Source: Patescibacteria group bacterium (GTDB lineage: Bacteria; Patescibacteriota; Microgenomatia; UBA1400; MFAQ01). From it: DNA of 27,110 nt. The position numbers and the translations under genes were made by a program. Positions 6,712 to 26,657 of the stretch are shown in pieces (positions within the stretch are counted from its first letter, which is position 1; each line of letters begins with the position of its first letter). Location: assembly GCA_036391475.1 (NCBI GenBank), contig DASVZW010000069.1:1-27110 (forward strand), in the 5' to 3' direction. The notes below the pieces were generated by a model. The model did not search any database, was not told the DNA's origin, and saw only the letters and a list, made by a program, of their open reading frames with translations.

Positions 6712-6712
6712 A

Positions 6713-11337: not shown

Positions 11338-12228
11338 ATGCCAAAAAGAAAAGTCAGGCGCGCAGTTATCACTGCAGCAGGATTAGGAACCCGTTTTCTA
11401 CCTGCAACGAAGAACTTACCCAAGGAAATGCTTCCGATCGTAGATACACCGATCATCCATTATGTGGCTGCCGAGTGTGTGGAGGCGGGAATCGAAGAAA
11501 TAATCTTGGTAATTAGACCAGGTAATGAAGCGGTGATGAACTATTTCACACCAAGTAAGCAGCTTGAAAAAATGCTTAAAGAGGCAGGTAAAGAAAAACA
11601 ACTTGAAAAATATTACGAAGTGGCGGAGAGAGCAAATTTTGTTTTTGTACACCAAAAATCGGGTTTGCCTTATGGTAATGGCAGTCCAATTTTAACTGTA
11701 AAAAGCTTAGTAGAGGATGAACCGTTTGTGGTTTGTTGGGGAGACGATTTGGTGCTAAATTCTGATGGGGTGGGGGGTGTCAAACAGGTGGTAGATTCTT
11801 TCGTATCACATGAAGATGCTTATGGAGTATTAGCCACAACTGTAGTACCGCATGAGGAAATCGTTCGGTATGGAATGGTTGAACTGGAAAATGGTGGAAC
11901 AGAGGGAAGAATTAAAAGAATCGTTGAGAAACCGAAATTAGAGGATGCTACTTCGGATTTGGCTGAGTTTGGAAGAATGGTGCTGTCACCGGAAATATTC
12001 AAGTATTTGGTCGAGACAAATACAGGAAAAGATGGGGAATTGTGGTTGATGGATTCGATCGAAAAATTGCTGGTGAAAAAACCGGTATATGCAAAAACCA
12101 TCCAGGGTGAGTTCTTAACGACAGGTGACCCATTAAGATTTTTGAAAACATCTTTTAAATTCGCTATGCAAAGGCCGGAGCTGGCAGAAGATTTGAAAGA
12201 ATTTTTGAGAAAAGAAATAATTGAGTAA
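11338..12228 (+). CDS. galU: UTP--glucose-1-phosphate uridylyltransferase (start reassigned from 11248 to ATG 11338)
   Basis: RAVITAAGLGTRFLPATKNLPKEMLPIVDTP, GNGSPI, EPFVVCWGDD, IVEKP, GELWLMDSI. The 30 extra N-terminal residues in the ORF track overlap the pilin gene and have no family pattern. Confidence 0.92.
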   Translation: MPKRKVRRAVITAAGLGTRFLPATKNLPKEMLPIVDTPIIHYVAAECVEAGIEEIILVIRPGNEAVMNYFTPSKQLEKMLKEAGKEKQLEKYYEVAERANFVFVHQKSGLPYGNGSPILTVKSLVEDEPFVVCWGDDLVLNSDGVGGVKQVVDSFVSHEDAYGVLATTVVPHEEIVRYGMVELENGGTEGRIKRIVEKPKLEDATSDLAEFGRMVLSPEIFKYLVETNTGKDGELWLMDSIEKLLVKKPVYAKTIQGEFLTTGDPLRFLKTSFKFAMQRPELAEDLKEFLRKEIIE

Positions 12229-12230
12229 CA

Positions 12231-12253
12231 AAAAGCCCGCCATTTAGGCGGGC
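12231..12253 (-). terminator. Intrinsic terminator of orphan unit U1
   Basis: GCCCGCC/GGCGGGC stem (12235-12253) with T-tract on the minus strand. Confidence 0.8.
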
Positions 12254-12259
12254 AAACAA

Positions 12260-12691
12260 TTAACTTTTCCGGAAAATGACATAGATTCCGGGAAGAAGTT
12301 CTGCAATGAATCGGTAAATTTCAATGGCCTTGGCCAATCTGTTGTCAGAATCCAGACCATAAAAACTGACTATTACTTTGAATGTATGATTATTATGGTC
12401 TTGGTCGTAGAAGTTTTCGGCTTTAATTGAGACATAGTATTCATTCTTTTTACCGAATTTTTCTCCGGTGAGTAGTAAGTCATACAGTGGAAGGGAATAA
12501 CGATCGCTTCCAAAAAAGAGAGATGGAGATCCTTCGTTGCGTGCGATGATACGACCACTTTCTTGTAATGATTCACCCAGGAAGACATAAAAATCTTCTT
12601 CGTAGTCATCCATTTTACAAACGATAAGTTTTCTGTTTTCCAAAGACCGGGTGTGAAACTCATGCGAACCGCAAATAGGGCAGATAAACAT
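12260..12691 (-). CDS. Orphan protein with N-terminal putative Zn-ribbon (CPICG...C)
   Basis: 143 aa ORF; SD AAGGAG embedded in the last codons of the upstream ORF; MFICPICGS...IVCK. Confidence 0.65.
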   Translation of the reverse strand: MFICPICGSHEFHTRSLENRKLIVCKMDDYEEDFYVFLGESLQESGRIIARNEGSPSLFFGSDRYSLPLYDLLLTGEKFGKKNEYYVSIKAENFYDQDHNNHTFKVIVSFYGLDSDNRLAKAIEIYRFIAELLPGIYVIFRKS

Positions 12692-12695
12692 CTTA

Positions 12696-13295
12696 TTACT
12701 CCTTTGTGATCTGAAGAAATTGTTTGAGTATCATATTACTTTGGAATATAACAACTTGACGGAAGTTATCTTCAGAGACGGGAATAATCCGGGTTCTGTT
12801 GTGATCATTCTCAAACCAAAGCTCTGGCGAAACGACTTTTTGACAAACAAATAAACCTTCGTGGTTTAACTCAACGAATAAACCGTTAGATAAGTTTTTG
12901 GGAACGTAAGGCGGAACTAAGGGATTCCGGCATGACCAAATTTTACTGAACCACGAAACTCTTACAATGGAGAAGCCTTCCAGTGTACCCGACACCGGGA
13001 TAGTAGCTTCAAGTTTAAAGTTATCCAAAGAAAGTTCCTCAAGCAGTTCGGACAGCGGTTTGGTTTCGGATGACGAACCGTTGAACAATGGCCCGACAAC
13101 TTTACTGTCCCGGATCTCTTTCCAAGTAATGAGACGAGCTAAGACAGCTTTCGGAGCAACGGTCAATATGTCCCGGTGATTGTTAACAATGACCGGCTCG
13201 GGATTGAAATAATCGAGTTTTTGAAGAAAGTCCGCCGTTTCCTCAGCATATCGAGAGATAAGAAGGCTTTTTTGAATCTGGTTTTTAAGACTCAC
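12696..13295 (-). CDS. Orphan soluble protein
   Basis: 199 aa; GTG start preceded by TAGGAGG-AAAA; internal member of a 4-gene unit. Confidence 0.65.
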   Translation of the reverse strand: MSLKNQIQKSLLISRYAEETADFLQKLDYFNPEPVIVNNHRDILTVAPKAVLARLITWKEIRDSKVVGPLFNGSSSETKPLSELLEELSLDNFKLEATIPVSGTLEGFSIVRVSWFSKIWSCRNPLVPPYVPKNLSNGLFVELNHEGLFVCQKVVSPELWFENDHNRTRIIPVSEDNFRQVVIFQSNMILKQFLQITKE

Positions 13296-13303
13296 TTTTC
13301 CTC

Positions 13304-13711
13304 CTAAAACCTAAGATAAGTTATGAAAGGTAGTAAACGCATAACGAGGGTAACAATTATCATCAAGATAAAAGTTAGCCAGCTAAAGACAGTAATGGCT
13401 ACTTTAGGATCGAAGATCTTCTTCTTTTGCCTATCGATAATTGCCTGGCCCACGGACAGAATGATAATAAGCAAACCCGTAACGATAGTAATTAGTTTCC
13501 CCGAAAATATTACGATCACGACAACAGAAAGAAGATTTAGAAGTCCGGCTATTAAAATAATTAAAGCCAGTATCCCGAGGGGTCGGGGAATATCAACCTC
13601 GATATCATCACTTACTTTCCGATAAGGAAGAAAGAACGGGGCGGAAACGGTATAGAGGAAAATAAATATTATCCCCATCGAAATTCCGAAGTAGGAAATG
13701 AAGTTAAGCAT
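13304..13711 (-). CDS. Orphan 4-TM membrane protein
   Basis: Four hydrophobic segments; SD TAGGAGG-CATAA-ATG. Confidence 0.72.
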   Translation of the reverse strand: MLNFISYFGISMGIIFIFLYTVSAPFFLPYRKVSDDIEVDIPRPLGILALIILIAGLLNLLSVVVIVIFSGKLITIVTGLLIIILSVGQAIIDRQKKKIFDPKVAITVFSWLTFILMIIVTLVMRLLPFITYLRF

Positions 13712-13720
13712 TTATGCCTC

Positions 13721-14101
13721 CTAGTGGGTGATGGAAAGGATCAAAAATACGGGGAGTAAGTGGATAATCACCGACAGGGTAAGTCTTGCAAGATAGCTTT
13801 TAATGTTTAGATCCAGAGACAAGAGTTGGCTATCCTTTTTGGAATAATAAATCGCCAGGCCCACATTGATCAGAAAAACCAGAGTGACAAGGCCAATGAT
13901 TGTCGGTTGGGGTGCGATCAACATAAGAAAAAGCATTCCAAGATAGTAAACGGTAATGGCTGCTATGGCGACGAATTGAAGACCTTGCAGCCAAAGAGGG
14001 AGGTTGCCTTGATGAGTTTTAGCTAATAGATGGACAAGGGTACTCAAAAAGAAAAAAGACAAACAGGCGTAAATACATACGAGTGCAATTTGGTCGATCA
14101 T
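13721..14101 (-). CDS. Orphan 4-TM membrane protein
   Basis: Four hydrophobic segments; SD AAGGAG-CCCCC-ATG. Confidence 0.72.
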   Translation of the reverse strand: MIDQIALVCIYACLSFFFLSTLVHLLAKTHQGNLPLWLQGLQFVAIAAITVYYLGMLFLMLIAPQPTIIGLVTLVFLINVGLAIYYSKKDSQLLSLDLNIKSYLARLTLSVIIHLLPVFLILSITH

Positions 14102-14154
14102 GGGGGCTCCTTTGTGGTGGAGAATGTGAAGGTTGGACTTTTTAAGTCTCGGGT

Positions 14155-14183
14155 ATCTTATAGCGCTAAGTTGTGCTTGTCAA
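14155..14183 (-). promoter_or_regulatory. sigma70-type promoter of unit U1
   Basis: Minus strand TTGACA(14183-14178), 17 nt, TAAGAT(14160-14155), then ACCC. Confidence 0.72.
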
Positions 14184-14963
14184 GTTTAATGGTAGCCTTC
14201 CTAGAGCAATCAAACGAGATACAGCCGAAAGAAAATATGAGTCTTCGATTTTGGATAAAAAATGAGGTAGTTCTGAGATCGGGTGAATGGCGATCTTGAA
14301 GCTAATACCCTTAGTCTTTAGGGGAGCGCTCAAGTCGAGATTTTTAGCTTCCGAGCCATCAATAATGGCAGCAAAAAGCGAAGAACGATTATTGGTCATG
14401 CCTATGTCCGGTGTTAGATGGCCTAAATCGATAAATTCCTTAATAATCAGATCATCCAAGCCGAGTTGACGTTTAATCTCTTTTTCTTGGGCGGTCGAAA
14501 GATTGATCAGATGACGGTCTTTGAATTCAATGAAACCGCCAAACGAGTCATAGACTTCGGTGTTTTGAGAGAATTTGGTGATGGTCTTAGTAATGAAATG
14601 AGAAATATGACCATTTTCTTCGACTAACAGAATCCCTTTATAGCCAGGATAAGAGCCAACCTTCCAACTAACATACTCATAAGTAAAGATTTGATTGGTC
14701 TCTTGAGATCTTACTTCAAAAACGGGTACTATAAGATAGTTACCACGTTCCAGCCTAATTAGCCTAAGAAGATCGATATTGTCGAGTTCATCGGGCTTAT
14801 TAGCCAATTCTGTCAAAAAACCGTCGAAGTCTTCAGGAAGAGAAAATAGTGCTTTTTTAAGGCTGGTATCGGTGTTTTTGAACCATTGAAGAAGTTCGAA
14901 TTTATGCCAGAGATCCTGCCTGGAAGACGATAACCGGTCGATGAGTTCTTTAGCTTTTGTCAT
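14166..14963 (-). CDS. Nudix-fold-like protein with degenerate Nudix box
   Basis: YDSFGGFIE...EKEIKRQLGL...IDLGHLTPDIGMTNNRSSLFAAII follows the ADP-ribose pyrophosphatase-type Nudix layout, but the box EE positions read RQ. Confidence 0.5.
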   Translation of the reverse strand: MTKAKELIDRLSSSRQDLWHKFELLQWFKNTDTSLKKALFSLPEDFDGFLTELANKPDELDNIDLLRLIRLERGNYLIVPVFEVRSQETNQIFTYEYVSWKVGSYPGYKGILLVEENGHISHFITKTITKFSQNTEVYDSFGGFIEFKDRHLINLSTAQEKEIKRQLGLDDLIIKEFIDLGHLTPDIGMTNNRSSLFAAIIDGSEAKNLDLSAPLKTKGISFKIAIHPISELPHFLSKIEDSYFLSAVSRLIALGRLPLNLTSTT

Positions 14964-15014
14964 AGGGTTATAGGCTTGAATTATATCAGAGATTCGATAG
15001 TTATGGGATGGTTG

Positions 15015-15023
15015 TGCTATAAT
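15015..15023 (+). promoter_or_regulatory. Extended -10 promoter (TG-C-TATAAT) upstream of the DUF5698 gene
   Basis: Perfect TGnTATAAT; a divergent TATAAT for the Nudix-like gene lies at 14985-14980 on the minus strand. Confidence 0.6.
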
Positions 15024-15123
15024 ATGGGCACAATGGAAAAATTTTCCACTTTACTAGATGAACCTGGGGGTACTGAACCTCCATCGCGTACTCCGGAGCG
15101 AAAAATGAGGCCGGGGTCTGTAT

Positions 15124-15384
15124 ATGTCAAACATTTTTATACAAATATTGCTCTACTTTGGCGTGGGCTTCCTCGAGATGTTTTTGGCCACCCAAAGAAC
15201 CTACTGGATCTCAAAAGGCAGATCACAGGCTGCGGCCCTCTTAGTATTTTTTGAGACTTTCGTGGCTATGTATATCATTTATCAGATCTCTCACGAGATG
15301 GGAAATAATTTCTTCGTTCTCACTTCTTATGCTGCAGGTAATGCGATCGGAACCTATGTAAACCTGGAGAAAGTTCCCTTTTAA
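15124..15384 (+). CDS. Small 3-TM membrane protein, DUF5698 (UPF0316/DUF2179 N-terminal-like)
   Basis: VGFLEMFLAT.R...ISKG....AALLVFFE......I......N.....SYAAGNAIGTY pattern. Confidence 0.72.
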   Translation: MSNIFIQILLYFGVGFLEMFLATQRTYWISKGRSQAAALLVFFETFVAMYIIYQISHEMGNNFFVLTSYAAGNAIGTYVNLEKVPF

Positions 15385-15395
15385 TTTGAACACAG

Positions 15396-15428
15396 AAAAG
15401 GCGCCCCGAGAAGGGCGCCTATTTTTTT
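15396..15428. terminator. Bidirectional intrinsic terminator (U2 and DUF5698)
   Basis: AAAA-AGGCGCCC/GGGCGCCT(15399-15420)-A-T7 between convergent genes. Confidence 0.85.
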
Positions 15429-15429
15429 G

Positions 15430-15867
15430 TCAACCGAGGACAACAATACCTTTAAAAACGTCGGCAAGGAGCAGGATGAGGTGCCAAAGGGCCCAACCGG
15501 CGGCCAGAAGAATGACCCCGCATACAGTAACAAGGACAAGAATACCCCAGAAGTTGCCTAGCCCAAATTCGTCATTACTTTTGTCGGGGCCTGAATAGAC
15601 CGTATAAACAACGGCAATGGTGATTAGGAGCCAAACAAGCGCCCAGAGTGAGTTAAAAAGCGCCGGCCAGAGGCCTGGTCCGGATGCTGCCAGGAGCAGA
15701 TCGAGGATAACGGTAAGCTCAGCGAGAAATTGTAAGGCCATCCCGGTTCTGCCTAGGTAGCTGTTTTGACCACCCAAATAGACACGCATAAGAGTGCCGA
15801 TGACCATAAGCCAAAGAGGGGAAGTCATAACGGCGCCAACAAAAAGGGGACTTTGATAGAAAGGCAT
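15430..15867 (-). CDS. Orphan 4-TM membrane protein (unit U2)
   Basis: Four hydrophobic segments; SD GGAGG-AAAA-ATG. Confidence 0.72.
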   Translation of the reverse strand: MPFYQSPLFVGAVMTSPLWLMVIGTLMRVYLGGQNSYLGRTGMALQFLAELTVILDLLLAASGPGLWPALFNSLWALVWLLITIAVVYTVYSGPDKSNDEFGLGNFWGILVLVTVCGVILLAAGWALWHLILLLADVFKGIVVLG

Positions 15868-15877
15868 TTTTCCTCCA

Positions 15878-15909
15878 GTTAAGGTACTTGAGATATAGGA
15901 ATTATACCA
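15878..15909 (-). promoter_or_regulatory. Extended -10 promoter plus leader motif GTACCTTAAC of unit U2
   Basis: Minus strand TG-G-TATAAT(15909-15901); GTACCTTAAC at 15887-15878. Confidence 0.65.
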
Positions 15910-15995
15910 TAGAGCATTTTATATAAGATATACGGCTAAGAAAACTGGGGATTGTATTTTGAGCTTATTGAAGTATAAAATTAAAAACTGTACTT

Positions 15996-16799
15996 ATGAT
16001 TAGACGCAATGATGATGACCTGAAAATTTTACTAGAAGCTGAGGCAGACGTAGATAAAGTAAAGAGATGGATAGTAGAGATATATTACGGAAGAGATCCT
16101 TTAAACTTTCACCTGACCGGAGATGTTTTTGATTGGTGGGTCGAGGAAGTACTTCAAAATTATCAGAAAGCAAAGAACCAAAAAATCAGGAAATTAATCC
16201 TGCACAAAGTTTTGCATACAAAGGAAGTGGTGGAAGCCGGACTTGATATTGTAGTTAGAACGGGAGAGATAGACTGGGACCCTTTTGTGGTGTGTACGGT
16301 TTGCTTGTTGCACGATATTGGTAGATTCCCACAGGCATTGCTAGGTAGTTATTCCGATAAAGAGACTAATTTTGACCATGCCAAAGAAGGAGCAAAAATG
16401 ATCGATAATAAAAATTTGCCTGAAATGGAAATGATGGGTATCGATAAAAATCTAGTGGTAGAGGCGGTGGAGGCTCATAGTGCAATTAGCTACACAGGAA
16501 ATAATATTTATCCAAAACTGACCAGAGATTCAGACAAACTCGCACTATTACGTTACATGCCATATCTAATGGACGATGAACGGTTCCCGAAGATAAAGGT
16601 TAACGAAAAGGCACTAGCCGCATATAAGGAGGGAAGAATGGTCGAACACAAGGATATGTTAAGCAGAGCAGATGTATGTTTGGCATGGCTTTGTTGGCAA
16701 AATGATTTTAACTTTGAGGCAACAAGAATGGCGTTTTTGGAGGAAGGAATAAAGGACTGGGTAAAGTCGGAGCTTTATAAAGAAGGTGTGGAGATATAA
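15996..16799 (+). CDS. HD-domain phosphohydrolase
   Basis: KVLHT (H), CLLHDIGRF (HD), FDHAKEG, AHS, RDSDKL (D). Confidence 0.85.
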   Translation: MIRRNDDDLKILLEAEADVDKVKRWIVEIYYGRDPLNFHLTGDVFDWWVEEVLQNYQKAKNQKIRKLILHKVLHTKEVVEAGLDIVVRTGEIDWDPFVVCTVCLLHDIGRFPQALLGSYSDKETNFDHAKEGAKMIDNKNLPEMEMMGIDKNLVVEAVEAHSAISYTGNNIYPKLTRDSDKLALLRYMPYLMDDERFPKIKVNEKALAAYKEGRMVEHKDMLSRADVCLAWLCWQNDFNFEATRMAFLEEGIKDWVKSELYKEGVEI

Positions 16800-17401
16800 A
16801 TTTTTAGGGCATCACCAAGTTTTGATGAAGGACCATGTCCGGGGTAAATGGTGGTTTCCGGAGGAAGCTTGCCGATAATTTTAAGAGAGTGGAGCAGCTC
16901 TATTTTGCTTGAATAAGAGTGACTGGTGTCGGTTAGCTCTTCGGCAAATAGGGTGTCTCCAGTTAATAGTATTTCATCTGATCTTAGACAAATCGACCCT
17001 GGAGTGTGACCGGGTGTATGAATAGTATTAATGATCGAATTGCCCAATTTAAATGAATGCCGATCCTCCAAATTGTGGTCGATGGGAGGGTTGGGCAAGT
17101 GTTGACCGGGAACAAAGTGGTCAGCACTTTGTTTGGAATTTTTATAAAGAAAAAGATCTTTTTGATTTAAATAAATGGGAAGATGAAAATTTAATTTTAG
17201 TTCAAGCACACCAAGACAATGATCGAAGTGCCCGTGGGTTAGAGCGATTGCCTGGGGTTTAAGGTGATGTTCAATAATCGTTTGGGAGATGAAGTCGGAC
17301 TCGTCTCCGGGATCGACGATCAGGGTTTCGTTACTTACCTCGTCAATTAGTAGATAACAATTGGTAAGCTGAGAGCCAACAGGTAAGGTAATAATTTCCA
17401 T
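16775..17401 (-). CDS. Metallo-beta-lactamase-fold hydrolase (glyoxalase II/YcbL-like)
   Basis: TNCYL, VDPG, THGHFDH, HTPGHT, GDTLF, YPGHG; TG-A-TAAAAT lies 9 nt upstream of the ATG. Confidence 0.9.
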   Translation of the reverse strand: MEIITLPVGSQLTNCYLLIDEVSNETLIVDPGDESDFISQTIIEHHLKPQAIALTHGHFDHCLGVLELKLNFHLPIYLNQKDLFLYKNSKQSADHFVPGQHLPNPPIDHNLEDRHSFKLGNSIINTIHTPGHTPGSICLRSDEILLTGDTLFAEELTDTSHSYSSKIELLHSLKIIGKLPPETTIYPGHGPSSKLGDALKIYISTPSL

Positions 17402-17438
17402 GGATAAGAAATTTTATCAAAATAAATTTGTAAGATTA

Positions 17439-17467
17439 TTGACAATCTAGGCACGGATAACTATTAT
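17439..17467 (+). promoter_or_regulatory. sigma70-type promoter
   Basis: TTGACA(17439-17444), 17 nt, TATTAT(17462-17467). Confidence 0.68.
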
Positions 17468-17491
17468 GGAATTATTACCATTACTTGAGAT

Positions 17492-17941
17492 ATGAAAACA
17501 AAATGGCTTATGGTGATTGGCGGTGTGGTGTTGGGTGGTTGTGTGATGACTAAGAATTTAAATCAAACGATGGTTACTTTGACACCCAGCCCGACAGTAT
17601 CAGTTTCACCTATGCCTACAAAAACAGTGGAGTTATTGGAACAGTCGAAATCGGGAATGAACGGAAAGGTGGCTTTTGTAGATGAAGGTGACAAAACTAG
17701 AGTAACTATAACTTTGTCAGGGAAAGGAATTATCGGGCCATTGCCAGCACATGTTCATTCGGGAAGTTGTCCGAACGTAGGGGTGATCAAGTTCCCTCTG
17801 AACGACGTAAAAAATGGCAGTTCCGACACTATGATCAATATCAGAATGTCCGACCTTTTTGGCTCGAACCCGATGGCGGTGAATGTACACAAGTCAGTAC
17901 AAGAAGCGACAATCTATACGGCTTGTGGTGACTTAAAATAA
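17492..17941 (+). CDS. Putative lipoprotein with Cu/Zn-SOD-like/CHRD-like small domain
   Basis: Lipobox VLGG|C, Pro/Thr linker, PAHVHSGSC...AVNVHKS...TACGDL. Confidence 0.62.
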   Translation: MKTKWLMVIGGVVLGGCVMTKNLNQTMVTLTPSPTVSVSPMPTKTVELLEQSKSGMNGKVAFVDEGDKTRVTITLSGKGIIGPLPAHVHSGSCPNVGVIKFPLNDVKNGSSDTMINIRMSDLFGSNPMAVNVHKSVQEATIYTACGDLK

Positions 17942-17942
17942 C

Positions 17943-17967
17943 AAAAACCCACCAATAGTTGGTGGGT
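17943..17967 (-). terminator. Intrinsic terminator of unit U3
   Basis: ACCCACCAA/TTGGTGGGT stem (17947-17967) with T-tract on the minus strand. Confidence 0.78.
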
Positions 17968-17983
17968 ATGAAATCGGCCTTTT

Positions 17984-18418: not shown

Positions 18419-18467
18419 AAACTCCTCCTTGGAGACAGGAATTAAATAGGAAAGTGCTTGATGGGGT

Positions 18468-18496
18468 AATATATCACCTTAGGCACAGTTTGTCAA
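18468..18496 (-). promoter_or_regulatory. sigma70-type promoter of unit U3
   Basis: TTGACA(18496-18491), 17 nt, TATATT(18473-18468), then ACCCC. Confidence 0.75.
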
Positions 18497-19253: not shown

Positions 19254-20162
19254 ATGACTAAAATTTTGGAATGGGCAAAAAGAAATTGGCTGACTTTGGT
19301 TCTTTTATTGGTAGTCGTGTATCTGTTTTCAAAAAATAATCAAGTTCCGTTTTATGGAGGGATGACAAATTTAAGTTTTGACTCCGGGGTAAGTAGCGGT
19401 AGTTTAGGTGTGGCGCCGATGATGGTTAAAAGTATAGGAACCCAGATATATCAACCTGCCGCACCGGTAGCAAGTACACAAAGAATGACCGTCCAAGATA
19501 CCTCTCTGGCTATGCAGGTAAACGATGTTTCTTCGGTTTTGGCTAGTATCGAAAATTTGGCAGTGAGTGCAGGCGGATACATGGTGGATAGAAACATGAA
19601 TAAACCCGAAGGGGCAGCTACCGGAAACATAACCATTAGAGTACCGGTTGAGAAAAGAGAAACAACTTTGACGGCGATAAAAGCATTGGGGATCAAAACG
19701 GTTTCCGAAAACGTGACCGGTTATGATGTTACGGACCAATATGTAGATCTTCAAGGAAGAATTGATAATTTAAATAAAACAAAAGCCAAGATGCAGACAT
19801 TGATGGATCAAGCAACAAAGGTAGCCGACTTGGCCGATATCCAGATGCAGATTAACAATATTCAAGAACAAATCGATAGTTATACTGGTCAACAAAAATA
19901 TTTGGAACAAACGGCTAAACTGACAAGAATAACGGTGAGTTTATCAACTGATGAATTGGCTTTGCCCTATGCCCCGGATACTGCTTGGAGACCCGGAGTT
20001 GTCTTCAAAACAGCGGTGAGGTCAATGATCGGTGCGTTAAGATCAGTAGCTAATTCGATAATCTGGGTTGTCGTTTATATACCCGTAATCGCATTTTTGT
20101 TAATTATTTTCTGGCTAGTAAAGTTGGTTTGGAGGAAAGTTCAGATGAGGAAATTGGGTTAA
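19254..20162 (+). CDS. DUF4349 domain membrane protein (ORF open from 19239; ATG 19254 preferred)
   Basis: N-terminal TM, then GGY....., ITIRVP, SENVTGYDVTDQYVDL, coiled coil IQEQIDS..GQQKYL, C-terminal TM; TG-T-TAAATT lies 5 nt before ATG 19254. Confidence 0.85.
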   Translation: MTKILEWAKRNWLTLVLLLVVVYLFSKNNQVPFYGGMTNLSFDSGVSSGSLGVAPMMVKSIGTQIYQPAAPVASTQRMTVQDTSLAMQVNDVSSVLASIENLAVSAGGYMVDRNMNKPEGAATGNITIRVPVEKRETTLTAIKALGIKTVSENVTGYDVTDQYVDLQGRIDNLNKTKAKMQTLMDQATKVADLADIQMQINNIQEQIDSYTGQQKYLEQTAKLTRITVSLSTDELALPYAPDTAWRPGVVFKTAVRSMIGALRSVANSIIWVVVYIPVIAFLLIIFWLVKLVWRKVQMRKLG

Positions 20163-20189
20163 ATTAACGAGAAAAAGGATTAAGGAAAT

Positions 20190-20218
20190 AAAAAAACTCT
20201 CCCTTTTGGGGAGAGTTT
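20190..20218. terminator. Intrinsic terminator of unit U5 (possibly bidirectional)
   Basis: A7 then AAACTCTCCC/GGGAGAGTTT stem (20194-20218) between convergent genes. Confidence 0.8.
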
Positions 20219-20230
20219 GAGTATTGGGTT

Positions 20231-20680
20231 TTACGGTAAAACAGCCATTAGTTTTCGCCAGACGGCGTCGCAGAATTGGAGACAAAAGGAGTATAAGGTG
20301 AGTGAGGTGATGACGCCCAGCCAGGAGGCCAATAGAAAATGAAGGCTGGACTTATCGATGACCAAGGTGATCAGCAGGGCAATGCCGAAGAGCAGCAAAC
20401 CGGTGGTGAGGGCGGTAAAGCCCTGGACGAACAGGTTGCCGAAACAGCCGAGGTCCGGGTCGATGAGGTGGTTGAAATGAGGGGGAATGCCGACCATTAG
20501 GCTTACGAGTAGCCAGATATTGAGAAAATTCAGGTTCCAGTCGGAAATCTGTGCCGGAAAGATGAGATGCAGGATGCCGTAGATGCAAAGCGTAAGTAAG
20601 GCACCGGCGGCCAAGGATACGATGGCCCATTTGGAGATCTTACCTAAGGCCGAAAGTAAGGTTGGAGATTCAGCTTCCAT
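20231..20680 (-). CDS. Orphan 4-TM membrane protein (unit U5)
   Basis: Four hydrophobic segments; SD AAGGAG-CAAATA-ATG. Confidence 0.72.
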   Translation of the reverse strand: MEAESPTLLSALGKISKWAIVSLAAGALLTLCIYGILHLIFPAQISDWNLNFLNIWLLVSLMVGIPPHFNHLIDPDLGCFGNLFVQGFTALTTGLLLFGIALLITLVIDKSSLHFLLASWLGVITSLTLYSFCLQFCDAVWRKLMAVLP

Positions 20681-20706
20681 TATTTGCTCCTTCGAAAACA
20701 GATGGA

Positions 20707-20751
20707 TTTAAGGTACAAAGGGATTCTAGCACCAGTAAGCCTAAAAATCAA
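20707..20751 (-). promoter_or_regulatory. sigma70-type promoter plus leader motif GTACCTTAAA of unit U5
   Basis: TTGATT(20751-20746), 17 nt, TAGAAT(20728-20723), then CCCTTT and GTACCTTAAA(20716-20707). Confidence 0.72.
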
Positions 20752-20770
20752 GGTTATGGGATGAAATATC

Positions 20771-21520
20771 TTATTCGATAAGTGTACCCTGATCGCTATA
20801 AGTGCCTATTTCGTGATTACCAAATTCATCAACCAGCCCAACGGTATAACAATTTTTACCTTTTTCTTTGGACCGATAAGCGAGTTCGTCGGCAATTTTA
20901 TATATTTCGTCGGGTGAAACTTCGTTGAACGGCATTACTACGGCACAGCCAAGGCTAATTGTTTGTGGTTCCGGTGTAAGTGATTTTATATTAGCCGGAA
21001 TACGATTTACCCTGTGAGCACTATTTAGGTATCTTTTAAGGAAGGAGGCAACCTCTTGGTCGAGGTGATCCAAATCTTTTATGGTAAGAAGCACCATAAA
21101 CTCGTCTCCGGCTAAACGACCAAAGGTATCTGTACCTCGAACACTAGAGCCAACCTCAATAGCCAGCTCCTTGAGAACAGTATCACCTTGAGGATGACCA
21201 AATGATTCGTTTACTTGTCTAAAGTTATCGACATCTACCATGACTACGGCAAAAGGATTGCCACCACGAGCGACTTCCTGAAGTTTCCTTTCCATTTCTG
21301 CTTGGATGAAACGTCGATTGGGAAGTTCGGTTAAGGTGTCGGTCATTGATAAGGATTCAAGTAACTTACTCTTGGCTCTCTCTTCATCAAGCAATCTTTG
21401 TGTTTCAGCAAGCTGTTTCTCAAGCTGGGCAATTCTTTGTTCCGGTGAGGGAACTTCGCCTTGAGGCTCGACGGTAAGTTTGATATCCGGATTGTTTTCT
21501 ATTTGAAGCGAGTCGATCAT
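20771..21520 (-). CDS. Diguanylate cyclase (coiled coil + GGDEF)
   Basis: TDTLTELPNRR, VDVDNFRQVNESFGH..GD, I-site RGTD five residues before A-site AGDEF, ADELAYRSKEKGKN; TATCAT lies 6 nt before the ATG. Confidence 0.92.
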   Translation of the reverse strand: MIDSLQIENNPDIKLTVEPQGEVPSPEQRIAQLEKQLAETQRLLDEERAKSKLLESLSMTDTLTELPNRRFIQAEMERKLQEVARGGNPFAVVMVDVDNFRQVNESFGHPQGDTVLKELAIEVGSSVRGTDTFGRLAGDEFMVLLTIKDLDHLDQEVASFLKRYLNSAHRVNRIPANIKSLTPEPQTISLGCAVVMPFNEVSPDEIYKIADELAYRSKEKGKNCYTVGLVDEFGNHEIGTYSDQGTLIE

Positions 21521-21606
21521 GATTTGATGATACAGTATGATCTTTAGCAGTGATACAATCTCGATGTTAATTGTACTTTTTTATCTTTGAAAATCCCGGA
21601 GGCGGT

Positions 21607-21936
21607 ATGCTTATCACCTTTTTGAATGTACCTTTTGATGTCTGTTGGAATGAGGAAATCGTAGAAAAGTTATTGGGGGAAACTGAATTATTCATGGGTC
21701 ATGAGCCGCGCATTGAAACTTATCGACTTAAAGAGAACCAATCCCATGTTCATGTCATAGTTTCGGAGATCATTGAGGCTTGCCCTTGGGAATTGCGGGT
21801 AGCTATCGCAAAGCAGATATTTTTGTTTTTAAAATACCATGCACTGCTTGAAGGCTCCGACATTTACTTTGCCAACTTCCCCACAGAACCCTTTGATGAG
21901 CATTATTTTGAACCTTTGGATGTAGAGATAAGGTAG
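21607..21936 (+). CDS. Small orphan protein (unit U6; start reassigned from TTG 21571 to ATG 21607)
   Basis: SD GGAGG(21598-21602)-CGGT-ATG; extended -10 TG-A-TACAAT at 21551-21559; has its own terminator. Confidence 0.68.
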   Translation: MLITFLNVPFDVCWNEEIVEKLLGETELFMGHEPRIETYRLKENQSHVHVIVSEIIEACPWELRVAIAKQIFLFLKYHALLEGSDIYFANFPTEPFDEHYFEPLDVEIR

Positions 21937-21947
21937 TACATTTTTAT

Positions 21948-21973
21948 AGACCCCTGAACCGGGGTCTTTTTTT
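21948..21973 (+). terminator. Intrinsic terminator of unit U6
   Basis: AGACCCC/GGGGTCT stem followed by T-tract. Confidence 0.8.
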
Positions 21974-21989
21974 ATATACAATAAGGGAT

Positions 21990-22625
21990 ATGAAATATAA
22001 GTATTTTTTATTTGATTGGGATGGAAGTTTGGGAGCAACTTTGCCGTTATGGTTTAAGGCCTTTAAAGAAACATTTTCCGATTATGGAATTAAGACCGAT
22101 TACAAAGAAATTGGAGAGGTAGTCTTAGGTGATTGGGAGGGACCTAAAAAATTGGGGATAACTAATCTTGAAGAATTTTTTGGGAAAATGGAAGCCGAAT
22201 TGATGCCTAAATTGCCAGACGTCCAGTTGAATCCCGGAGTTAAAGAAACTTTAGAAAAAATAAAGTCCTTGGGAGGAAAGATCGGGGTGGTAACAACCTC
22301 AAAAAAACGTTACATTAAGAATGCTTTAAAAAATAATGGATTGTCAAAAGTGGTGGATGTTTTTTTGGGCAGGGAGGATGTTGAAAATTACAAACCGGAC
22401 CCGGAGATACTTTATAAAGCTCTAAACTTCATGGGTGGACGGCCATCGGAGTCGATCATGGTGGGCGATACGGTAAAAGACATTGAGGCCGCTAAAAGAG
22501 CGGGGATTGATAGTGCACTGTATTTCCCGGACGAATACCGAGAATATTATGATGAAGTCAGACAGAAAGGTCTTGGGGCTACTTACGTGATCAAAAGTTT
22601 TCAGGATCTAGAAAGGTTTCTTTAA
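21990..22625 (+). CDS. HAD-family hydrolase, subfamily IA (PpaX/Gph-like)
   Basis: Motif I FDWDGSL, motif II VVTTS, motif III KPDP, motif IV MVGDTVKD; TACAAT(21977-21982) lies 7 nt before the ATG. Confidence 0.9.
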   Translation: MKYKYFLFDWDGSLGATLPLWFKAFKETFSDYGIKTDYKEIGEVVLGDWEGPKKLGITNLEEFFGKMEAELMPKLPDVQLNPGVKETLEKIKSLGGKIGVVTTSKKRYIKNALKNNGLSKVVDVFLGREDVENYKPDPEILYKALNFMGGRPSESIMVGDTVKDIEAAKRAGIDSALYFPDEYREYYDEVRQKGLGATYVIKSFQDLERFL

Positions 22626-22636
22626 ATTTGAGTAAT

Positions 22637-22662
22637 AAAAACCCCGCCGAGTGTGGCGGGGT
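22637..22662 (-). terminator. Intrinsic terminator of unit U7
   Basis: ACCCCGCC/GGCGGGGT stem (22641-22662) with T-tract on the minus strand. Confidence 0.8.
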
Positions 22663-22669
22663 GAAAAAA

Positions 22670-23020
22670 TTAGGGGATGAAATGACGAACATAGGCGTAA
22701 AGCCGGGAGAGTGGGGCTATGGTGAGAATAACGGTGATGGTCTGAACCAGATTTAAAGAATCACCGGAGAGCCCAAAAAAGGCATTGGTCCTCAGTAAAG
22801 CCACCAGCGCACCAAAAATGATTAAGAGAGCTAGTGGAATGATCCAATCAGCTTTGGTGCCATTATTAGGGATGAGGAAATAGGTTAAATTGGACAACCC
22901 GATACCGGCGAAAAGGGCGCCGAGAACAGCTACGATGTTCCATTCCGGCGATCGAGCCAGAAGGAGATTCGCCAGAAAACCAAAAATCACGAACAAAACA
23001 TTAACGAATTTGTTGTTCAT
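22670..23020 (-). CDS. Orphan 4-TM membrane protein (unit U7)
   Basis: Four hydrophobic segments; SD AAGGAG-ACAC-ATG. Confidence 0.72.
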   Translation of the reverse strand: MNNKFVNVLFVIFGFLANLLLARSPEWNIVAVLGALFAGIGLSNLTYFLIPNNGTKADWIIPLALLIIFGALVALLRTNAFFGLSGDSLNLVQTITVILTIAPLSRLYAYVRHFIP

Positions 23021-23031
23021 GTGTCTCCTTG

Positions 23032-23553
23032 TTATTTCCAGTTTATAAAATAGGTGATGATCTTGAATCTCTTTGAAGAGCGGGCAAGTACCTCAATATG
23101 TCTTTTGGCCGTGATAACTTCCAGAAGATCAGCGTTTTTATAACTGACTGTCATAACGCCATCCAGAAAGGTTACCTTGTAAATTGTTTCATCCAAAAGT
23201 CCCAGGAAAAGGTCGATTTCCGGATCACGCCCAATTAAACGGACGCCACTATCGATAATGTAGACTACCTCGAAAAGCGGTTCTTCCGGGGGGTAAATGC
23301 TGTTCGTAAACTCTGAAATAACTTCTCCTGAGGTTTGCAAACACATTGAAAGGTCGAAAACAGCATCTTGGCTAAGCGGAACCGAACAATTGCAGAAAAA
23401 CAAATAGCGCTTGAGAGAGCTGCCAACCAAACGCCAACCGTGAGTGGTGATTCCATCTTGCCGACTGCAAAGATCATGAAAGCGTTCGGTGAGGCCGGCC
23501 GGTAGGTTTTGAAGTTCGACGAGTGAGATAAAAAACCAAGTGGGTTTATCCAT
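23032..23553 (-). CDS. Orphan protein, possibly two ACT-like modules (unit U7)
   Basis: 173 aa; SD GAGGAG overlapping the upstream stop. Confidence 0.65.
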   Translation of the reverse strand: MDKPTWFFISLVELQNLPAGLTERFHDLCSRQDGITTHGWRLVGSSLKRYLFFCNCSVPLSQDAVFDLSMCLQTSGEVISEFTNSIYPPEEPLFEVVYIIDSGVRLIGRDPEIDLFLGLLDETIYKVTFLDGVMTVSYKNADLLEVITAKRHIEVLARSSKRFKIITYFINWK

Positions 23554-23555
23554 GA

Positions 23556-23840
23556 CTACTCCTCTTTGGGATGTGTTTCGGTTTCTGAAGAGAAATTTAA
23601 GAAACTCGCAGTTTGAAGCCAGGTCCGGATCTGATTGCGGATCTCTTCGGATATGGGTGAGTTGGCTTCGACAATGAAAGCGTGTTCGAACCCTTCCTGC
23701 AGGTACAAAGCAGATGTGACCTCAGGCTGCAGTAGTGATAAACGATGAAAAGCGGAGACCAAATGTCTTAATGGATCACTTCTTTGGGCGGAAAAGCGGA
23801 AGGTAACTGCAAAAGGTGCATTGATGGCCGGTAAGTTCAT
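23556..23840 (-). CDS. Small orphan protein, possibly ACT-like (unit U7)
   Basis: 94 aa; SD TAGGAGG-ATCCT-ATG. Confidence 0.68.
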   Translation of the reverse strand: MNLPAINAPFAVTFRFSAQRSDPLRHLVSAFHRLSLLQPEVTSALYLQEGFEHAFIVEANSPISEEIRNQIRTWLQTASFLNFSSETETHPKEE

Positions 23841-23876
23841 AGGATCCTCCTAATTTGAAATGTGCGATTTGTGGGT

Positions 23877-23906
23877 ATTTTATCACTTATAGGACTAAAT
23901 GGTCAT
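23877..23906 (-). promoter_or_regulatory. Extended -10 promoter of unit U7
   Basis: ATGACC(23906-23901), 18 nt ending in TG-A, TAAAAT(23882-23877), then ACCC. Confidence 0.62.
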
Positions 23907-23907
23907 A

Positions 23908-23936
23908 TTGAGGAGAAATGATTAAGACGCTATACT
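23908..23936 (+). promoter_or_regulatory. sigma70-type promoter, likely leaderless
   Basis: TTGAGG(23908-23913), 17 nt, TATACT(23931-23936), then 5 nt to ATG 23942. Confidence 0.65.
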
Positions 23937-23941
23937 GAATT

Positions 23942-25669
23942 ATGGCTTCTGAAGCAGAAAACGTTGAGCGTGGAAAAATAACTCAAGAAGATAGAGAAAG
24001 AATAAGGCCGACAACGACGTGGGAAGAATATAGCGCGGCACAAAAGGAAAAAAATAAGAAAGCTGAGATGTTTGTGACTTATGTACTGCAAAATACGGAT
24101 TTTGCCAATGAAAAATTGGCTCCACTGAAAGAAAAGACTCCGGGGGAAATATTGGATATGGAAGATAAGGGCGGAGAAGTTTTTTTAAGAGCAGCACAGT
24201 TGGCAATAAAGGAATTGGTGACTCACGGGGTGTTGGTCAAAAATGAAGAAGGTGAATATTTGTTAAAACCATTCTCAGATCTTGATGGCAAATGTTGTTT
24301 GGGTTTAATGGAAATGGCCGGCTTAACCAGTGGAGCAAAAATTACTTATGTGGAACCGGGAAAAGAAGTGAAGGGGGCAGTAATGATGGATACCGGAGGC
24401 AGAAATGTAGAGTATGAAGAGGGTTCAATGTATATAGACCATCACGCCGATGATTCCAAAAGCGGAACCAGTGCCACAGAAGAGACTTACGATATTTTAT
24501 TTAGGTGCGGGCTAATTCAACCGACAATGGCTTTGGAAGGAATGGCCGACTTTGTGACGGGAATGGATAATGGTTCGTATCCCGGAATGCATAAAAAAGA
24601 AAATTTTTTGAATTCCTGGAAAACAATGATTGGTATGTCAAGGTTTTTAGGTTTCCAGGAGATGAAGGAGTATTTTTCAGATTTACGCAATGACCCATTA
24701 AGACCGCTTGGTTTTAACAGGATGGATAAATGGCCGATCGGGACAAATAAAAAACTGAACGATAGGTCTAATGAAATGAAGATCGACATCAATAGATCGG
24801 TGGATGCGGTTGAACGATTAAGAGACGAGCATATGTATGTCGAGACAAAGAAATACGGAAAAGTGTTAGTAGATATCGGTAAACAAGTGCCGTTGGGTAG
24901 GGATGCTGCATTTGCTTTGGGGTTCGATACTTATTTGGGATGGAACCCAGATAATAATGGGTTCGTTATAAATTCAACCAGGAAAATAACCGATGAATTG
25001 GCACAAGGTTTTGGAGTAAGAGAGTACATGTGGTTGAAGCCAAGAAATGTGGGTGGAGATTTGACGCTGAGACTAGATGAAGTGTTGGACACCTTAGCGG
25101 GTGGAACGGCCTGGACAGAAGGGAAATTGGCGGAGTATCTAAATAAGGGAATTAAATCAGATAAAGAAGCGGAAGAAGAAGGTTTGGCCGGTTTTTTCGA
25201 TCCCGATAGAGAAGAAAAAGAAGTAACCGAAGAACTGGCCGGAATATTTGATCCTGACCTTCAAGAAGAAAATGAGGAGGTAATTCCCGAGGAGATCGAA
25301 GAACAGCCTTTGGTAGAAATATTAGCCGAACAGGCGACCCCGGAGGTAGTCAGTGTTCCTGAAATAGAAACGGTAGAGGCAATTGAGCCTGAACCAAGCC
25401 TGGAAAGAGAGGAGGAATTGGACGAAGGAATTACAGCCGAATCCGAGACGAGACTGATCAACGAAGCTGAGAAGCTAAACCTGGAAAAACTGGAACAGGA
25501 AGCAATAAGAAGAAAACAGTGGGATCTGGTCCAGCAGTTAAGAAGCGAGTATGCCGCCAAAGAAGAGGAAAGGAACAATCGTTTTAGCTTGGTAAATCTT
25601 TTTAACGGAAAGTTGTGGAAAAGAGCGGTAAATAGCACTAAATCTTGGTGGAGAAGGGTGTTCGGATAA
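23942..25669 (+). CDS. DHH-like phosphoesterase domain with long acidic tail and basic amphipathic C-terminus
   Basis: Motifs in DHH order: SDLDG, MMDTGG, YIDHH, TSA, GMDN. Glu-rich tail; ends LWKRAVNSTKSWWRRVFG. Confidence 0.55.
   Translation: MASEAENVERGKITQEDRERIRPTTTWEEYSAAQKEKNKKAEMFVTYVLQNTDFANEKLAPLKEKTPGEILDMEDKGGEVFLRAAQLAIKELVTHGVLVKNEEGEYLLKPFSDLDGKCCLGLMEMAGLTSGAKITYVEPGKEVKGAVMMDTGGRNVEYEEGSMYIDHHADDSKSGTSATEETYDILFRCGLIQPTMALEGMADFVTGMDNGSYPGMHKKENFLNSWKTMIGMSRFLGFQEMKEYFSDLRNDPLRPLGFNRMDKWPIGTNKKLNDRSNEMKIDINRSVDAVERLRDEHMYVETKKYGKVLVDIGKQVPLGRDAAFALGFDTYLGWNPDNNGFVINSTRKITDELAQGFGVREYMWLKPRNVGGDLTLRLDEVLDTLAGGTAWTEGKLAEYLNKGIKSDKEAEEEGLAGFFDPDREEKEVTEELAGIFDPDLQEENEEVIPEEIEEQPLVEILAEQATPEVVSVPEIETVEAIEPEPSLEREEELDEGITAESETRLINEAEKLNLEKLEQEAIRRKQWDLVQQLRSEYAAKEEERNNRFSLVNLFNGKLWKRAVNSTKSWWRRVFG
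25184..25285 (+). repeat. Two imperfect 51-bp (17-aa) coding repeats, LAG(F/I)FDPDxxExxE
   Basis: TTGGCCGGT... at 25184 and CTGGCCGGA... at 25235. Confidence 0.65.
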
Positions 25670-25681
25670 TAGCTTATAGTA

Positions 25682-25739
25682 TTGATTTTAGGCATCTATT
25701 GTGATAAAATCCTCTTAATCTTACGTCTTGTACCTTAAC
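25682..25739 (+). promoter_or_regulatory. sigma70-type promoter plus leader motif GTACCTTAAC of unit U8
   Basis: TTGATT(25682-25687), 17 nt ending in TG-A, TAAAAT(25705-25710), then CCTC; GTACCTTAAC at 25730-25739. Confidence 0.75.
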
Positions 25740-25754
25740 TGAATGGAGGAAAAT

Positions 25755-26621
25755 ATGCGTAAAGTTTTGGCTTGGACTTTGTCTTTGGCTTTTTTGGTTG
25801 GTCTGATCGGTACACCCGCTTCGTTAGTTTTAGCAAGCGGTGGATTTACTCAAGTGGCGGGATCGGCTTTTGTCTATAACAGCATCCCGGCACCGGTAGG
25901 TCAAACTGTGAATTTTTATTGTGCAGGCACCTTTGCCGGTCAATCGACCGTAACCACGGTAGGGGTTTTAAATACTACCGACATTGGCTCGGCTAATGGA
26001 ACTCTTTGTCATGAAGGTGATGAAGTCACGGCGATGGTGGGACCTTTCAGAGCCCTGGTCACACCCCGTCTTTTTTGGGCGAACGACAGTGTAGTCCACC
26101 AGATCACCGCCCGGGCGATCGACACCGAATACACCATCGATATCCAGTCGGCTTCAACCCAGCTGGTGAACCTTCCATTGGCTTTTGAGTTGCCAATCGG
26201 CTTGAGATACGAGGACTATAACACCGGAAAAACGGACACAGTGTATTTTATGAGTTCCGGGTCAGGTATGTCTTTTGATGCAAAGTCCTTTGAGTTTTTA
26301 TCGGCCAACGGCATGCCTTTTTCAAAGGTTTACTATGATCGTTATGTATGCAGCGGGATTGGTCTTAAATACGATAAGTCCGGTCAGACATCACTGGTTT
26401 CGGTAACAAATAATTCCGGCCAGGTGATGCAAGTGATGTTGACTTTGGACGGAACGACCAATCCGGCCGGTTTGTTGAATCCCGGCGGAAGCTTCTCGGT
26501 AGAATCCGATGTTCCCGGTGCCGTAGCTCTTTTGAAAGACGGCGTTTCGGGGAGCCAGTGTGTCAGCGTTGGCTGGAACTTAAGAATCCAGAAAATTTTT
26601 CTTCCTTTTGTCAAAAAATGA
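25755..26621 (+). CDS. Secreted beta-rich orphan protein ending in IFLPFVKK (unit U8; start reassigned from 25743 to ATG 25755)
   Basis: SD GGAGG(25745-25749)-AAAAT-ATG; signal peptide MRKVLAW...ASLVLA; four Cys. Confidence 0.72.
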   Translation: MRKVLAWTLSLAFLVGLIGTPASLVLASGGFTQVAGSAFVYNSIPAPVGQTVNFYCAGTFAGQSTVTTVGVLNTTDIGSANGTLCHEGDEVTAMVGPFRALVTPRLFWANDSVVHQITARAIDTEYTIDIQSASTQLVNLPLAFELPIGLRYEDYNTGKTDTVYFMSSGSGMSFDAKSFEFLSANGMPFSKVYYDRYVCSGIGLKYDKSGQTSLVSVTNNSGQVMQVMLTLDGTTNPAGLLNPGGSFSVESDVPGAVALLKDGVSGSQCVSVGWNLRIQKIFLPFVKK

Positions 26622-26631
26622 TGTTGTAATG

Positions 26632-26657
26632 GGCACCTCGTAAGAGGTGCCTTTTTT
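26632..26657 (+). terminator. Intrinsic terminator of unit U8
   Basis: GGCACCTC-GTAA-GAGGTGCC followed by T6. Confidence 0.85.

Follow-up and report, generated by a model that had tools for sequence, protein, structure and literature searches.

The window analysed here is the complete 27.1-kb contig C69 of the metagenome-assembled genome (MAG) G000, which belongs to Candidatus Collierbacteria of the Microgenomates/OP11 group within the candidate phyla radiation (CPR). The MAG comprises 905 kb in 158 contigs with a G+C content of 42%, and its completeness and contamination were 89% and 2.5%, respectively. A block of plus-strand genes occupies the first 12 kb of the window, and beyond 12.2 kb conserved genes interleave with 14 small open reading frames (ORFs) that had no convincing match to a Pfam family. 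These ORFs, referred to as orphans, are organised in eight units, U1–U8 (Table 1), and the units with their expression signals are the subject of this study. An earlier note, made from the letters of the window alone, had taken them for a second, co-ordinated gene class inside a chromosome that otherwise does without Shine-Dalgarno (SD) motifs.

An AGGAG or GGAGG motif ending 5–10 nt upstream of the start codon was found in 14/14 orphan ORFs (U1a–d, U2, U3, U4a/b, U5, U6 with the ATG at 21607, U7a–c, and U8 with the ATG at 25755), and in three internal genes it was present as TAGGAGG spanning the upstream stop codon. The motif was detected in none of the 23 conserved genes of the window. The genome-wide background was 1.8% of in-frame internal start codons, so the frequency of 14/14 is far above chance. 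The earlier note was correct on both counts, i.e. the strong SD at every orphan ORF, TAGGAGG overlaps included, and the lack of a clear SD at the recognisable genes. Its equation of SD-led genes with unassignable ones held in part: all 14 orphans have the motif, but seven other Pfam-less ORFs of the window (unk324, unk125, unk416, unk265, unk149, unk575 and unk137) do not, and at least four of these (unk416, unk265, unk149, unk575) are conserved in relatives. The predictor of an SD is therefore the absence of orthologues and not the absence of a family name.

The eight strongest terminator-like sites between 11500 and 27110 contain 5–7 G-C pairs, and each of them lies 6–16 nt downstream of the stop codon of one unit in the correct orientation, in agreement with the earlier claim of an intrinsic terminator per unit. 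No hairpin with a T-tract was found after positions 975, 3564, 10781, 11293 or 25669, as had been stated before, and no strong terminator was present at any gene end in the first 11.5 kb. Five conserved genes, NTP-transferase, DUF5698, unk149, DUF4349 and HAD, converge on unit terminators. The terminator of U2 scores on both strands, its plus-strand score standing behind DUF5698, and the terminator of U5 has A- and T-runs on its flanks. Some of the conserved genes may use the unit terminators jointly.

A correctly placed -35/-10 pair with a spacing of 17–18 nt was detected in six of the eight units, and U2 and U6 had an extended -10 only; the idea that each unit has its own sigma70-type promoter stood in full for the former and in reduced form for the latter. 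Promoter-like matches overall were not above the level of shuffled sequences (34 vs 28.2, sd 5.5), so that position and conservation in relatives, not counts, are the basis of the promoter calls. Each of the eight units has the motif G[CT]AC[ACT]TT in its 5' region. Six units are on the minus strand, and U2, U4, U6 and U7 stand head-to-head with a conserved gene, as noted earlier. The heptamer CC(T/C)ATAA, a candidate operator that may regulate the promoters it accompanies, adjoins or lies inside those of U3 (18498–18504, where CCTATAA abuts the -35), U4 (19208–19227), U5 (20754–20760) and U7 (23887–23893). At U4 it is part of the inverted repeat GTTATAG-N4-CTATAAC, situated upstream of the -35 and abutting it.

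Table 1. Positions and signals of the orphan units and of the conserved genes in the window. TM, transmembrane segments; GC3, G+C content at third codon positions.
Feature	Span	Strand	Promoter	Leader motif	SD	Terminator	Genes
U1	12235–14183	-	TTGACA-17-TAAGAT, 14155–14183	TCACATT, 14123–14129	all genes	12235–12253	four: U1a 13721–14101 (4 TM), U1b 13304–13711 (5 TM), U1c 12696–13295, U1d 12260–12691 (N-terminal CxxC)
U2	15399–15909	-	extended -10 TGGTATAAT, 15901–15909	GTACCTT, 15881–15887	GGAGG	15399–15420	single: 15430–15867 (5 TM)
U3	17947–18496	-	TTGACA-17-TATATT (with TG), 18468–18496	GCACTTT	AAGGAGG	17947–17967	17984–18418 (GC3 0.66)
U4	18514–19206	-	TTGACT-17-TAAGAT, 19178–19206	GCACTTT	TAGGAGG across stop (U4b)	18514–18531	U4a 18830–19141 (103 aa), U4b 18539–18820 (93 aa); 9 nt between genes; soluble
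U5	20194–20751	-	TTGATT-17-TAGAAT (with TG), 20723–20751	GTACCTT	AAGGAG	20194–20218	20231–20680 (3 TM)
U6	21551–21967	+	extended -10 TGATACAAT, 21551–21559	GTACTTT, 21573–21579	GGAGG	21948–21967	21607–21936
U7	22641–23906	-	ATGACC-18-TAAAAT (with TG), 23877–23906	GCACATT	all genes	22641–22662	three: U7a 23556–23840, U7b 23032–23553, U7c 22670–23020 (3 TM)
U8	25682–26652	+	TTGATT-17-TAAAAT (with TG), 25682–25710	GTACCTT, 25730–25736	GGAGG	26631–26652	25755–26621 (N-terminus signal-peptide-like)
Contrast block of conserved genes	1046–12228	+			none	none	two response regulators, CHASE-PAS histidine kinase, PilB, PilC, three pilins, LVIVD protein, PilM-like protein, NTP-transferase
Interleaved conserved genes	14166–25669				none		unk265, DUF5698, HD, MBL (metallo-beta-lactamase), unk149, DUF4349, GGDEF, HAD, unk575

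The genome-wide distribution of the signals was determined in G000 (950 genes) and in G004 (911 genes), a closed 905-kb genome from another genus of the same family. Two sharp upstream peaks were detected in both genomes. The first, TAnAAT at -12, has the geometry of leaderless mRNAs and was found in 49 genes of G000 and 62 genes of G004; the second, AGGAG/GGAGG, is located at -12 to -9. A relaxed TAnnnT was present in 44–45% of the remaining genes with large upstream gaps, compared with 5% per internal start. A strong SD preceded 11.6% of the longest-ORF starts and occurred within the first 40 codons in 19% of genes. Core genes with neither an SD nor a clear TAnAAT fall into two kinds: leaderless genes whose -10 is weaker, and closely packed internal genes preceded by A-rich, G-poor sequence.

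The SD status was strongly associated with several other properties. Only 21% and 23% of SD-led genes in the two genomes were conserved between the genera, whereas the share was 68–79% for other genes (Fisher p 1e-29 and 2e-35); the odds ratio was about 0.1 in both genomes and the difference was present in every length bin. A strong intrinsic terminator within 70 nt after the stop codon was found in 55% and 70% of SD-led genes vs 5–8% of the others, with odds ratios of 15 and 32, and the association was present at co-directional and convergent junctions taken separately. Genes having both an SD and a terminator were conserved in only 8–10% of cases. A -35 match of at least 5/6 was detected in 37–39% of SD units vs 4% of leaderless promoters, the former figure being somewhat inflated, as the best of several candidate positions was taken. 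The SD-unit promoters had a TG extension in 46–50% of cases, a C-rich discriminator and a median distance of 37–41 nt from the -10 to the ATG. The median GC3 of SD-led genes was 0.49 vs 0.41–0.42 for the rest in G000, and 0.435 vs 0.40 in G004. The SD-class genes were also shorter (median about 145–165 aa). Their 5' regions have k-mers such as GCACATT, GTACTTTA and ACCTTAA in common, located at -30 to -20 in either genus; upstream of SD-plus-terminator genes of both genomes related leader k-mers were 10–70 times and CCTATA/TATAGG about 7–14 times enriched. The size of the class was determined to be 112 genes in 89 terminated units in G000 and 135 genes in 118 units in G004, i.e. 12–15% of genes. 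In G004, SD-plus-terminator genes cluster in the chromosome sectors 0–75, 125–175 and 750–905 kb, and the region syntenic to the window lies within one of these. The second gene class proposed in the earlier note is thus borne out in two genomes, since SD presence follows both narrow homologue breadth and terminators.

The 3' end of the 16S rRNA retains an intact CCUCC, a point raised in the earlier note, and GGATCACCTCCTTTCT was found in contig C65 of G000 and in G004. G000 has two 16S genes, C65:1556–3052 and C72:579–2080, which are 76.8% identical and both end in CCUCCUUU. The 3' flank of the C65 copy is common to G004, and C72, a contig of 2.2 kb, probably represents contamination by another CPR organism.

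In relatives, the conserved genes were found in the same order by DNA and protein comparison, and the orphans had no DNA match. The same gaps hold unrelated SD-led, terminated ORFs of the relatives' own, and the conserved genes around them look leaderless; the synteny comparison suggested in the earlier note therefore showed different units between the same conserved neighbours. No homologue of U3 or U7b was detected in the 43 other genomes of the family that were searched. Weak matches to U8 (27–30%) were found in three of these 43, all from another genus (G012, G017, G089). Weak syntenic homologues (25%) of U2 and U6 adjoin DUF5698 in G003 and HAD in G004, respectively, and G001 contains, in the corresponding positions, two weak tandem homologues of U5 and a 33% identical homologue of U7c. 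The related contig L213 carries U4a (94% identical) and U4b (87%) in the same order. In the case of U1, syntenic homologues of U1b and U1c with 37–44% identity in G001 and 21–28% in G003 were found, the promoter and leader of the unit are kept in L157, and in a distant metagenome contig unk265 precedes a U1-like unit that has the same promoter and whose leader is ACCC(G/A)GACTTAAAAAG. Judged from these comparisons, the units form a spectrum, with vertically inherited, family-old ones (U1 with its promoter) at one end and species-specific ones at the other.

Outside the two tallied genomes, an SD together with a terminator was found in 10/161 genes of G008 (same family) and, at the HAD loci of 21 genomes from genera g1, g2 and g6, 14/77 genes belonged to the class. 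The combination was nearly lacking in G020 (same order; 4/452 genes in 480 kb sampled) and G033 (same class; 1/364 genes in 420 kb sampled), both of which retain the leaderless class. The count of the pattern AGGAGG-N4-8-ATG was dropped as a cross-genome proxy, as it separates genomes only about two-fold.

The orphans encode proteins and evolve under purifying selection. Near-identical strain contigs from other studies are collinear over the units, and among 40 listed of 261 variant sites, the single-nucleotide polymorphisms (SNPs) in orphans comprised 10 synonymous and 3 non-synonymous changes (binomial p 4e-4). Both SNPs of U2 were synonymous, and the nine of U5 were composed of 7 synonymous and 2 conservative changes, which fixes its minus-strand frame. 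Two homologues of U3, 91% and 83% identical, gave a ratio of non-synonymous to synonymous rates (dN/dS) of 0.09–0.17 at dS 0.3–0.8, with the promoter conserved, and one of these contigs keeps the order U4a-U4b-U3-unk149. In the case of U1c, a word-based homologue search matched only the protein itself, and an exhaustive profile search of 1.84 billion proteins revealed a family of 18 clusters that share conserved motifs. The AlphaFold model of U1c (pLDDT 93.8, pTM 0.88) has a long helical hairpin, an antiparallel sheet and a C-terminal helix, and it had no clear match in fold searches (PDB E ≥ 0.05; AlphaFold Database TM ≤ 0.34; best VIA Z 6.9). U1c may have an undescribed fold. The model of U3 was poor (pLDDT 56). 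U4a and U4b, a small adjacent pair with a palindrome at the promoter, resemble in layout a toxin-antitoxin or other two-component addiction module and have no Pfam match. The Atlas lead of U4b was below 0.9 and uninformative, as was the Atlas search with U7b.

Convincing Pfam matches were also lacking for most large SD-class proteins of G004, even at 400–500 aa. The annotated members of the class are few and accessory: a PLD-like enzyme, NAPRTase, an S41 peptidase, an SDR and a LysM L,D-transpeptidase. Ten proteins, four window orphans and six from G004, were compared with the anti-phage defence models of PADLOC, and none of them matched. An SD-class operon of G004 (L016:10448–14901), also without a PADLOC match, encodes a PP2C phosphatase, a kinase-like protein, a protein with no assigned function and a VWA protein; it is situated between MBL and HAD, where the window has U3–U6. 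The possibility of a multigene family was rejected, as only 13–15% of SD-class proteins have a paralogue within the genome. Enrichment of TM or secretion signals was rejected too, the SD class and the other genes showing no difference.

Taken together, two signal sets partition the genome, and the partition follows core versus lineage-specific genes. The eight units are likely a local sample of a genome-wide second class of accessory genes, which use autonomous canonical signals inside an SD-independent, leaderless core. In the core style, a -10 box without a -35 would direct transcription starting at the ATG, giving a leaderless mRNA; internal genes are tightly packed, with A-rich upstream regions and no SD, and there are hardly any intrinsic terminators. 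Rho was found to be present. The textbook style, covering about 12–15% of genes, consists of a TTGAC -35, an extended -10 and a C-rich discriminator, a predicted 5' untranslated region of about 30–35 nt with the common leader motif, a strong SD for each gene, and a G+C-rich hairpin with a T-tract after one to four genes. The genes so equipped are mostly species- to family-restricted orphans along with a few accessory enzymes. Because the 16S rRNA keeps CCUCC, the unit mRNAs would bind the 30S subunit in the ordinary way by SD/anti-SD pairing, and the core genes would depend on leaderless or other SD-independent initiation. The terminators would insulate the units from convergent conserved genes. 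In evolutionary terms, the class would correspond to the flexible genome, with self-sufficient units being gained, replaced and lost between fixed conserved neighbours and some of them, such as U1, being retained for long.

The earlier note had offered two origins or roles for the units. According to one, they are domesticated phage- or plasmid-derived "moron"-like cassettes, borne by mobile elements and keeping their own promoter, SD and terminator. The autonomy of the units, their small, GC3-rich orphan proteins and the different content of the same sites among relatives are in line with this, and U3 gave language-model feature matches of 0.95 to a Uroviricota-only cluster and 0.94 to DUF2303 clusters, a candidate lead for which Pfam and PHROGs returned nothing. 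However, none of 20 SD-class proteins matched PHROGs and no relatives of U3 or U8 were detected in IMG/VR, which is weak evidence against morons, as both resources may cover CPR phages poorly. The units are scattered singly among core genes with cellular neighbours and do not form prophage blocks; neither tRNA genes nor flanking repeats or att-like sites were found in the window, and each genome has only two conserved Xer-like tyrosine recombinases. The template of promoter and leader is lineage-specific and common to two genera, and U1 was inherited vertically together with its promoter. A moron origin is thus considered unlikely. The common template favours instead circulation or origin within the Collierbacteria gene pool or its own unsampled mobile elements, and the units probably circulate within, or arise inside, this lineage or its elements and do not come from unrelated donors.

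The other proposal, a co-regulated, state-specific programme such as host attachment, switched via the leader motif, via CCYATAA at the -35 or by a change of the ribosome, could account for the presence of the leader motif in all eight units, for the enrichment of its k-mers and of CCTATA/TATAGG in both genomes, and for the C-rich discriminator; two mechanistically distinct initiation routes would in principle permit global switching. Yet the gene content of the class is almost wholly different between genera, unlike that of a conserved programme, CCYATAA occurs in only about 15–20% of units, the distances of the leader motif to the -10 and to the SD are variable, no regulator was identified, and the class shows no enrichment of TM or secretion signals, which makes such a programme an improbable explanation. 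The co-existence of leaderless and SD-led genes in one genome is familiar, e.g. from mycobacteria and Deinococcus, and both upstream peaks, TAnAAT and SD, were seen in G000 and G004. It is nevertheless very improbable that the window belongs to an ordinary mixed genome of the "group C" type in which signals and gene classes are not linked, or that chance motifs precede spurious ORFs: internal genes of core operons have no SD, non-conservation, terminators, -35 boxes and GC3 all go with the SD (p values from 1e-29 to 1e-65), and the orphans are under purifying selection.

Several points weigh against a flexible class with its own signals. The promoters, 5' ends, terminators and initiation modes are all predictions, and the sequencing runs containing this DNA are all DNA runs with no RNA run among them. 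Between close relatives, the orphans match their core neighbour in conservation (U4a 94%, U4b 87% and U3 83% vs 85% for unk149), no donor of a gene transfer was found, and the GC3 shift could reflect class-specific codon selection. The genes of the tally were called with a home-made, crude codon-bias caller, the SD was sought at several candidate starts, so that some of the genes with an SD and no terminator are false positives, and conservation was scored against one genome of another genus. The two outgroup genomes, G020 and G033, were sampled at 46–53% only. Evidence of the class comes from genera g1, g2 and g6, to which g9 (G011) adds two examples, and the samples of genera g4, g5, g7 and g8, taken around ABC-transporter genes, consist of 14–17 genes each and are too small to tell.

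A wider reading connects the accessory class with the ribosomal protein bS21. The bS21 family (PF01165) was detected in none of 19 genomes of the family (G000–G018), and it was present in 12/12 other families of the order and in 9/9 other Patescibacteria tested. The loss of bS21 in Collierbacteria has already been published, the group often lacking the protein (PMC9297842). It is conceivable, but rather doubtful, that the bS21-less Collierbacteria run two orthogonal channels, a leaderless or SD-independent one for the core and an SD-dependent one almost only for newly gained or newly born genes in standardised plug-in units, and that the SD channel is a lineage innovation, possibly enabled by the loss of bS21, to admit, insulate and perhaps globally switch a flexible proteome. 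If so, the loss of bS21 was possibly the enabling step of the SD channel. As a general predictor of SD use bS21 was rejected, since the protein is present in all other Patescibacteria of moderate SD use. The loss of bS21 together with the accessory class in this family is therefore one evolutionary event, a single co-occurrence and not a rule.

In the contrast block of conserved genes, the first genes have TAnnnT 11–14 nt upstream of the start and the internal genes have A-rich, G-poor upstream regions. Within the pilus operon (6690–9150), (G)ATTAAA(T) was found 4–8 nt upstream of the starts of the internal genes PilC, pilinA, LVIVD, unk125 and RR2, and it may act in the core class as an A-rich initiation signal distinct from the SD. 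The NTP-transferase is 72–81% identical in relatives. Among the interleaved conserved genes, several have a -10 box at the leaderless-mRNA position, and the orthologues of the whole set are 38–78% identical with the order kept, the exceptions being GGDEF (31–40%) and unk575 (34%, one relative). The near-identical strains X6 and X7, from two other studies, have the GGDEF gene with its flank (20767–21596) swapped for 2035 other letters and are otherwise collinear with the window over 7111–27107; the only structural strain difference seen strikes therefore a recognisable gene, not an orphan unit. DNA nearly identical to positions 12221–22220 (0.6–0.97 of sampled words) was found in metagenomes of soil, rhizosphere, mine tailings and sediment that stem from several independent studies, and such an environmental spread is unusually wide for a single CPR strain group. 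No known RNA was detected in the window with Rfam. In G004, the cumulative GC skew rises monotonically around the whole chromosome (L024–L069; G > C on one strand), only the slope changing, and no classical origin/terminus switch is visible.

The presence of two signal sets has practical consequences for gene finding, as start prediction with one model will mis-call starts in such CPR genomes and a class-aware dual model is needed. The genomes also provide a natural test case in which one ribosome with an intact anti-SD serves an SD-ignoring core and an SD-dependent accessory set, so that SD-independent initiation, leaderless translation and the role of bS21 become directly testable. If canonical signals mark the flexible genome, one genome could be enough to recognise accessory or host-interaction genes in uncultured episymbionts, and no pangenome would be required. 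The partition raises the question of how new genes acquire expression signals in streamlined genomes.

Taken singly, morons, SD-poor lineages and genomes that mix leaderless with SD-led genes are already known. To our knowledge, supplemented by a non-exhaustive literature search, there is no described case of flexible genes with a full set of transcription and translation signals different from that of the core, and no description of a signal partition between core and lineage-specific genes was found in that search. In their signals, the genomes resemble the "group C" genomes of GeneMarkS-2 (Mycobacterium, Deinococcus, many Actinobacteria), which have a -10 box 6–7 nt upstream of the ATG in one set of genes and an SD with an intact anti-SD in another. 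Among the latter, leadered and operon-internal genes in general make use of the SD, whereas here the internal core genes have no SD and the SD set is a discrete minority, marked also by terminators, -35 boxes, GC3 and the lack of orthologues. The Bacteroidota have A-rich, "Kozak-like" upstream regions, their anti-SD is sequestered with the help of bS21 (with bS18 and bS6), and the SD is kept for a few genes, e.g. rpsU. The Collierbacteria resemble them in that most genes have no SD though the 16S rRNA keeps CCUCC, and in the A-rich, G-poor upstream regions. They differ in the SD-led minority, which consists of orphan and accessory rather than ribosomal genes, and, as bS21 was found in 0/19 family genomes, sequestration of the Bacteroidota type is inapplicable as described. 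Like phage morons, the units place one or a few non-essential genes with their own promoter and intrinsic terminator between conserved genes; unlike morons, they have no prophage context, phage-family match or integrase, they number about 90–120 over the chromosome, and some are inherited vertically across the family. With integron cassettes they share small, mostly orphan, variable genes between fixed points, but intI and attC-like inverted repeats are lacking, the units lie in both orientations and each has its own promoter and terminator, for which reason the earlier note had rightly set integrons aside. In their arrangement, the units are comparable with the flexible islands and hypervariable regions of streamlined bacteria, where strain- or species-specific genes occupy sectors between syntenic core genes.

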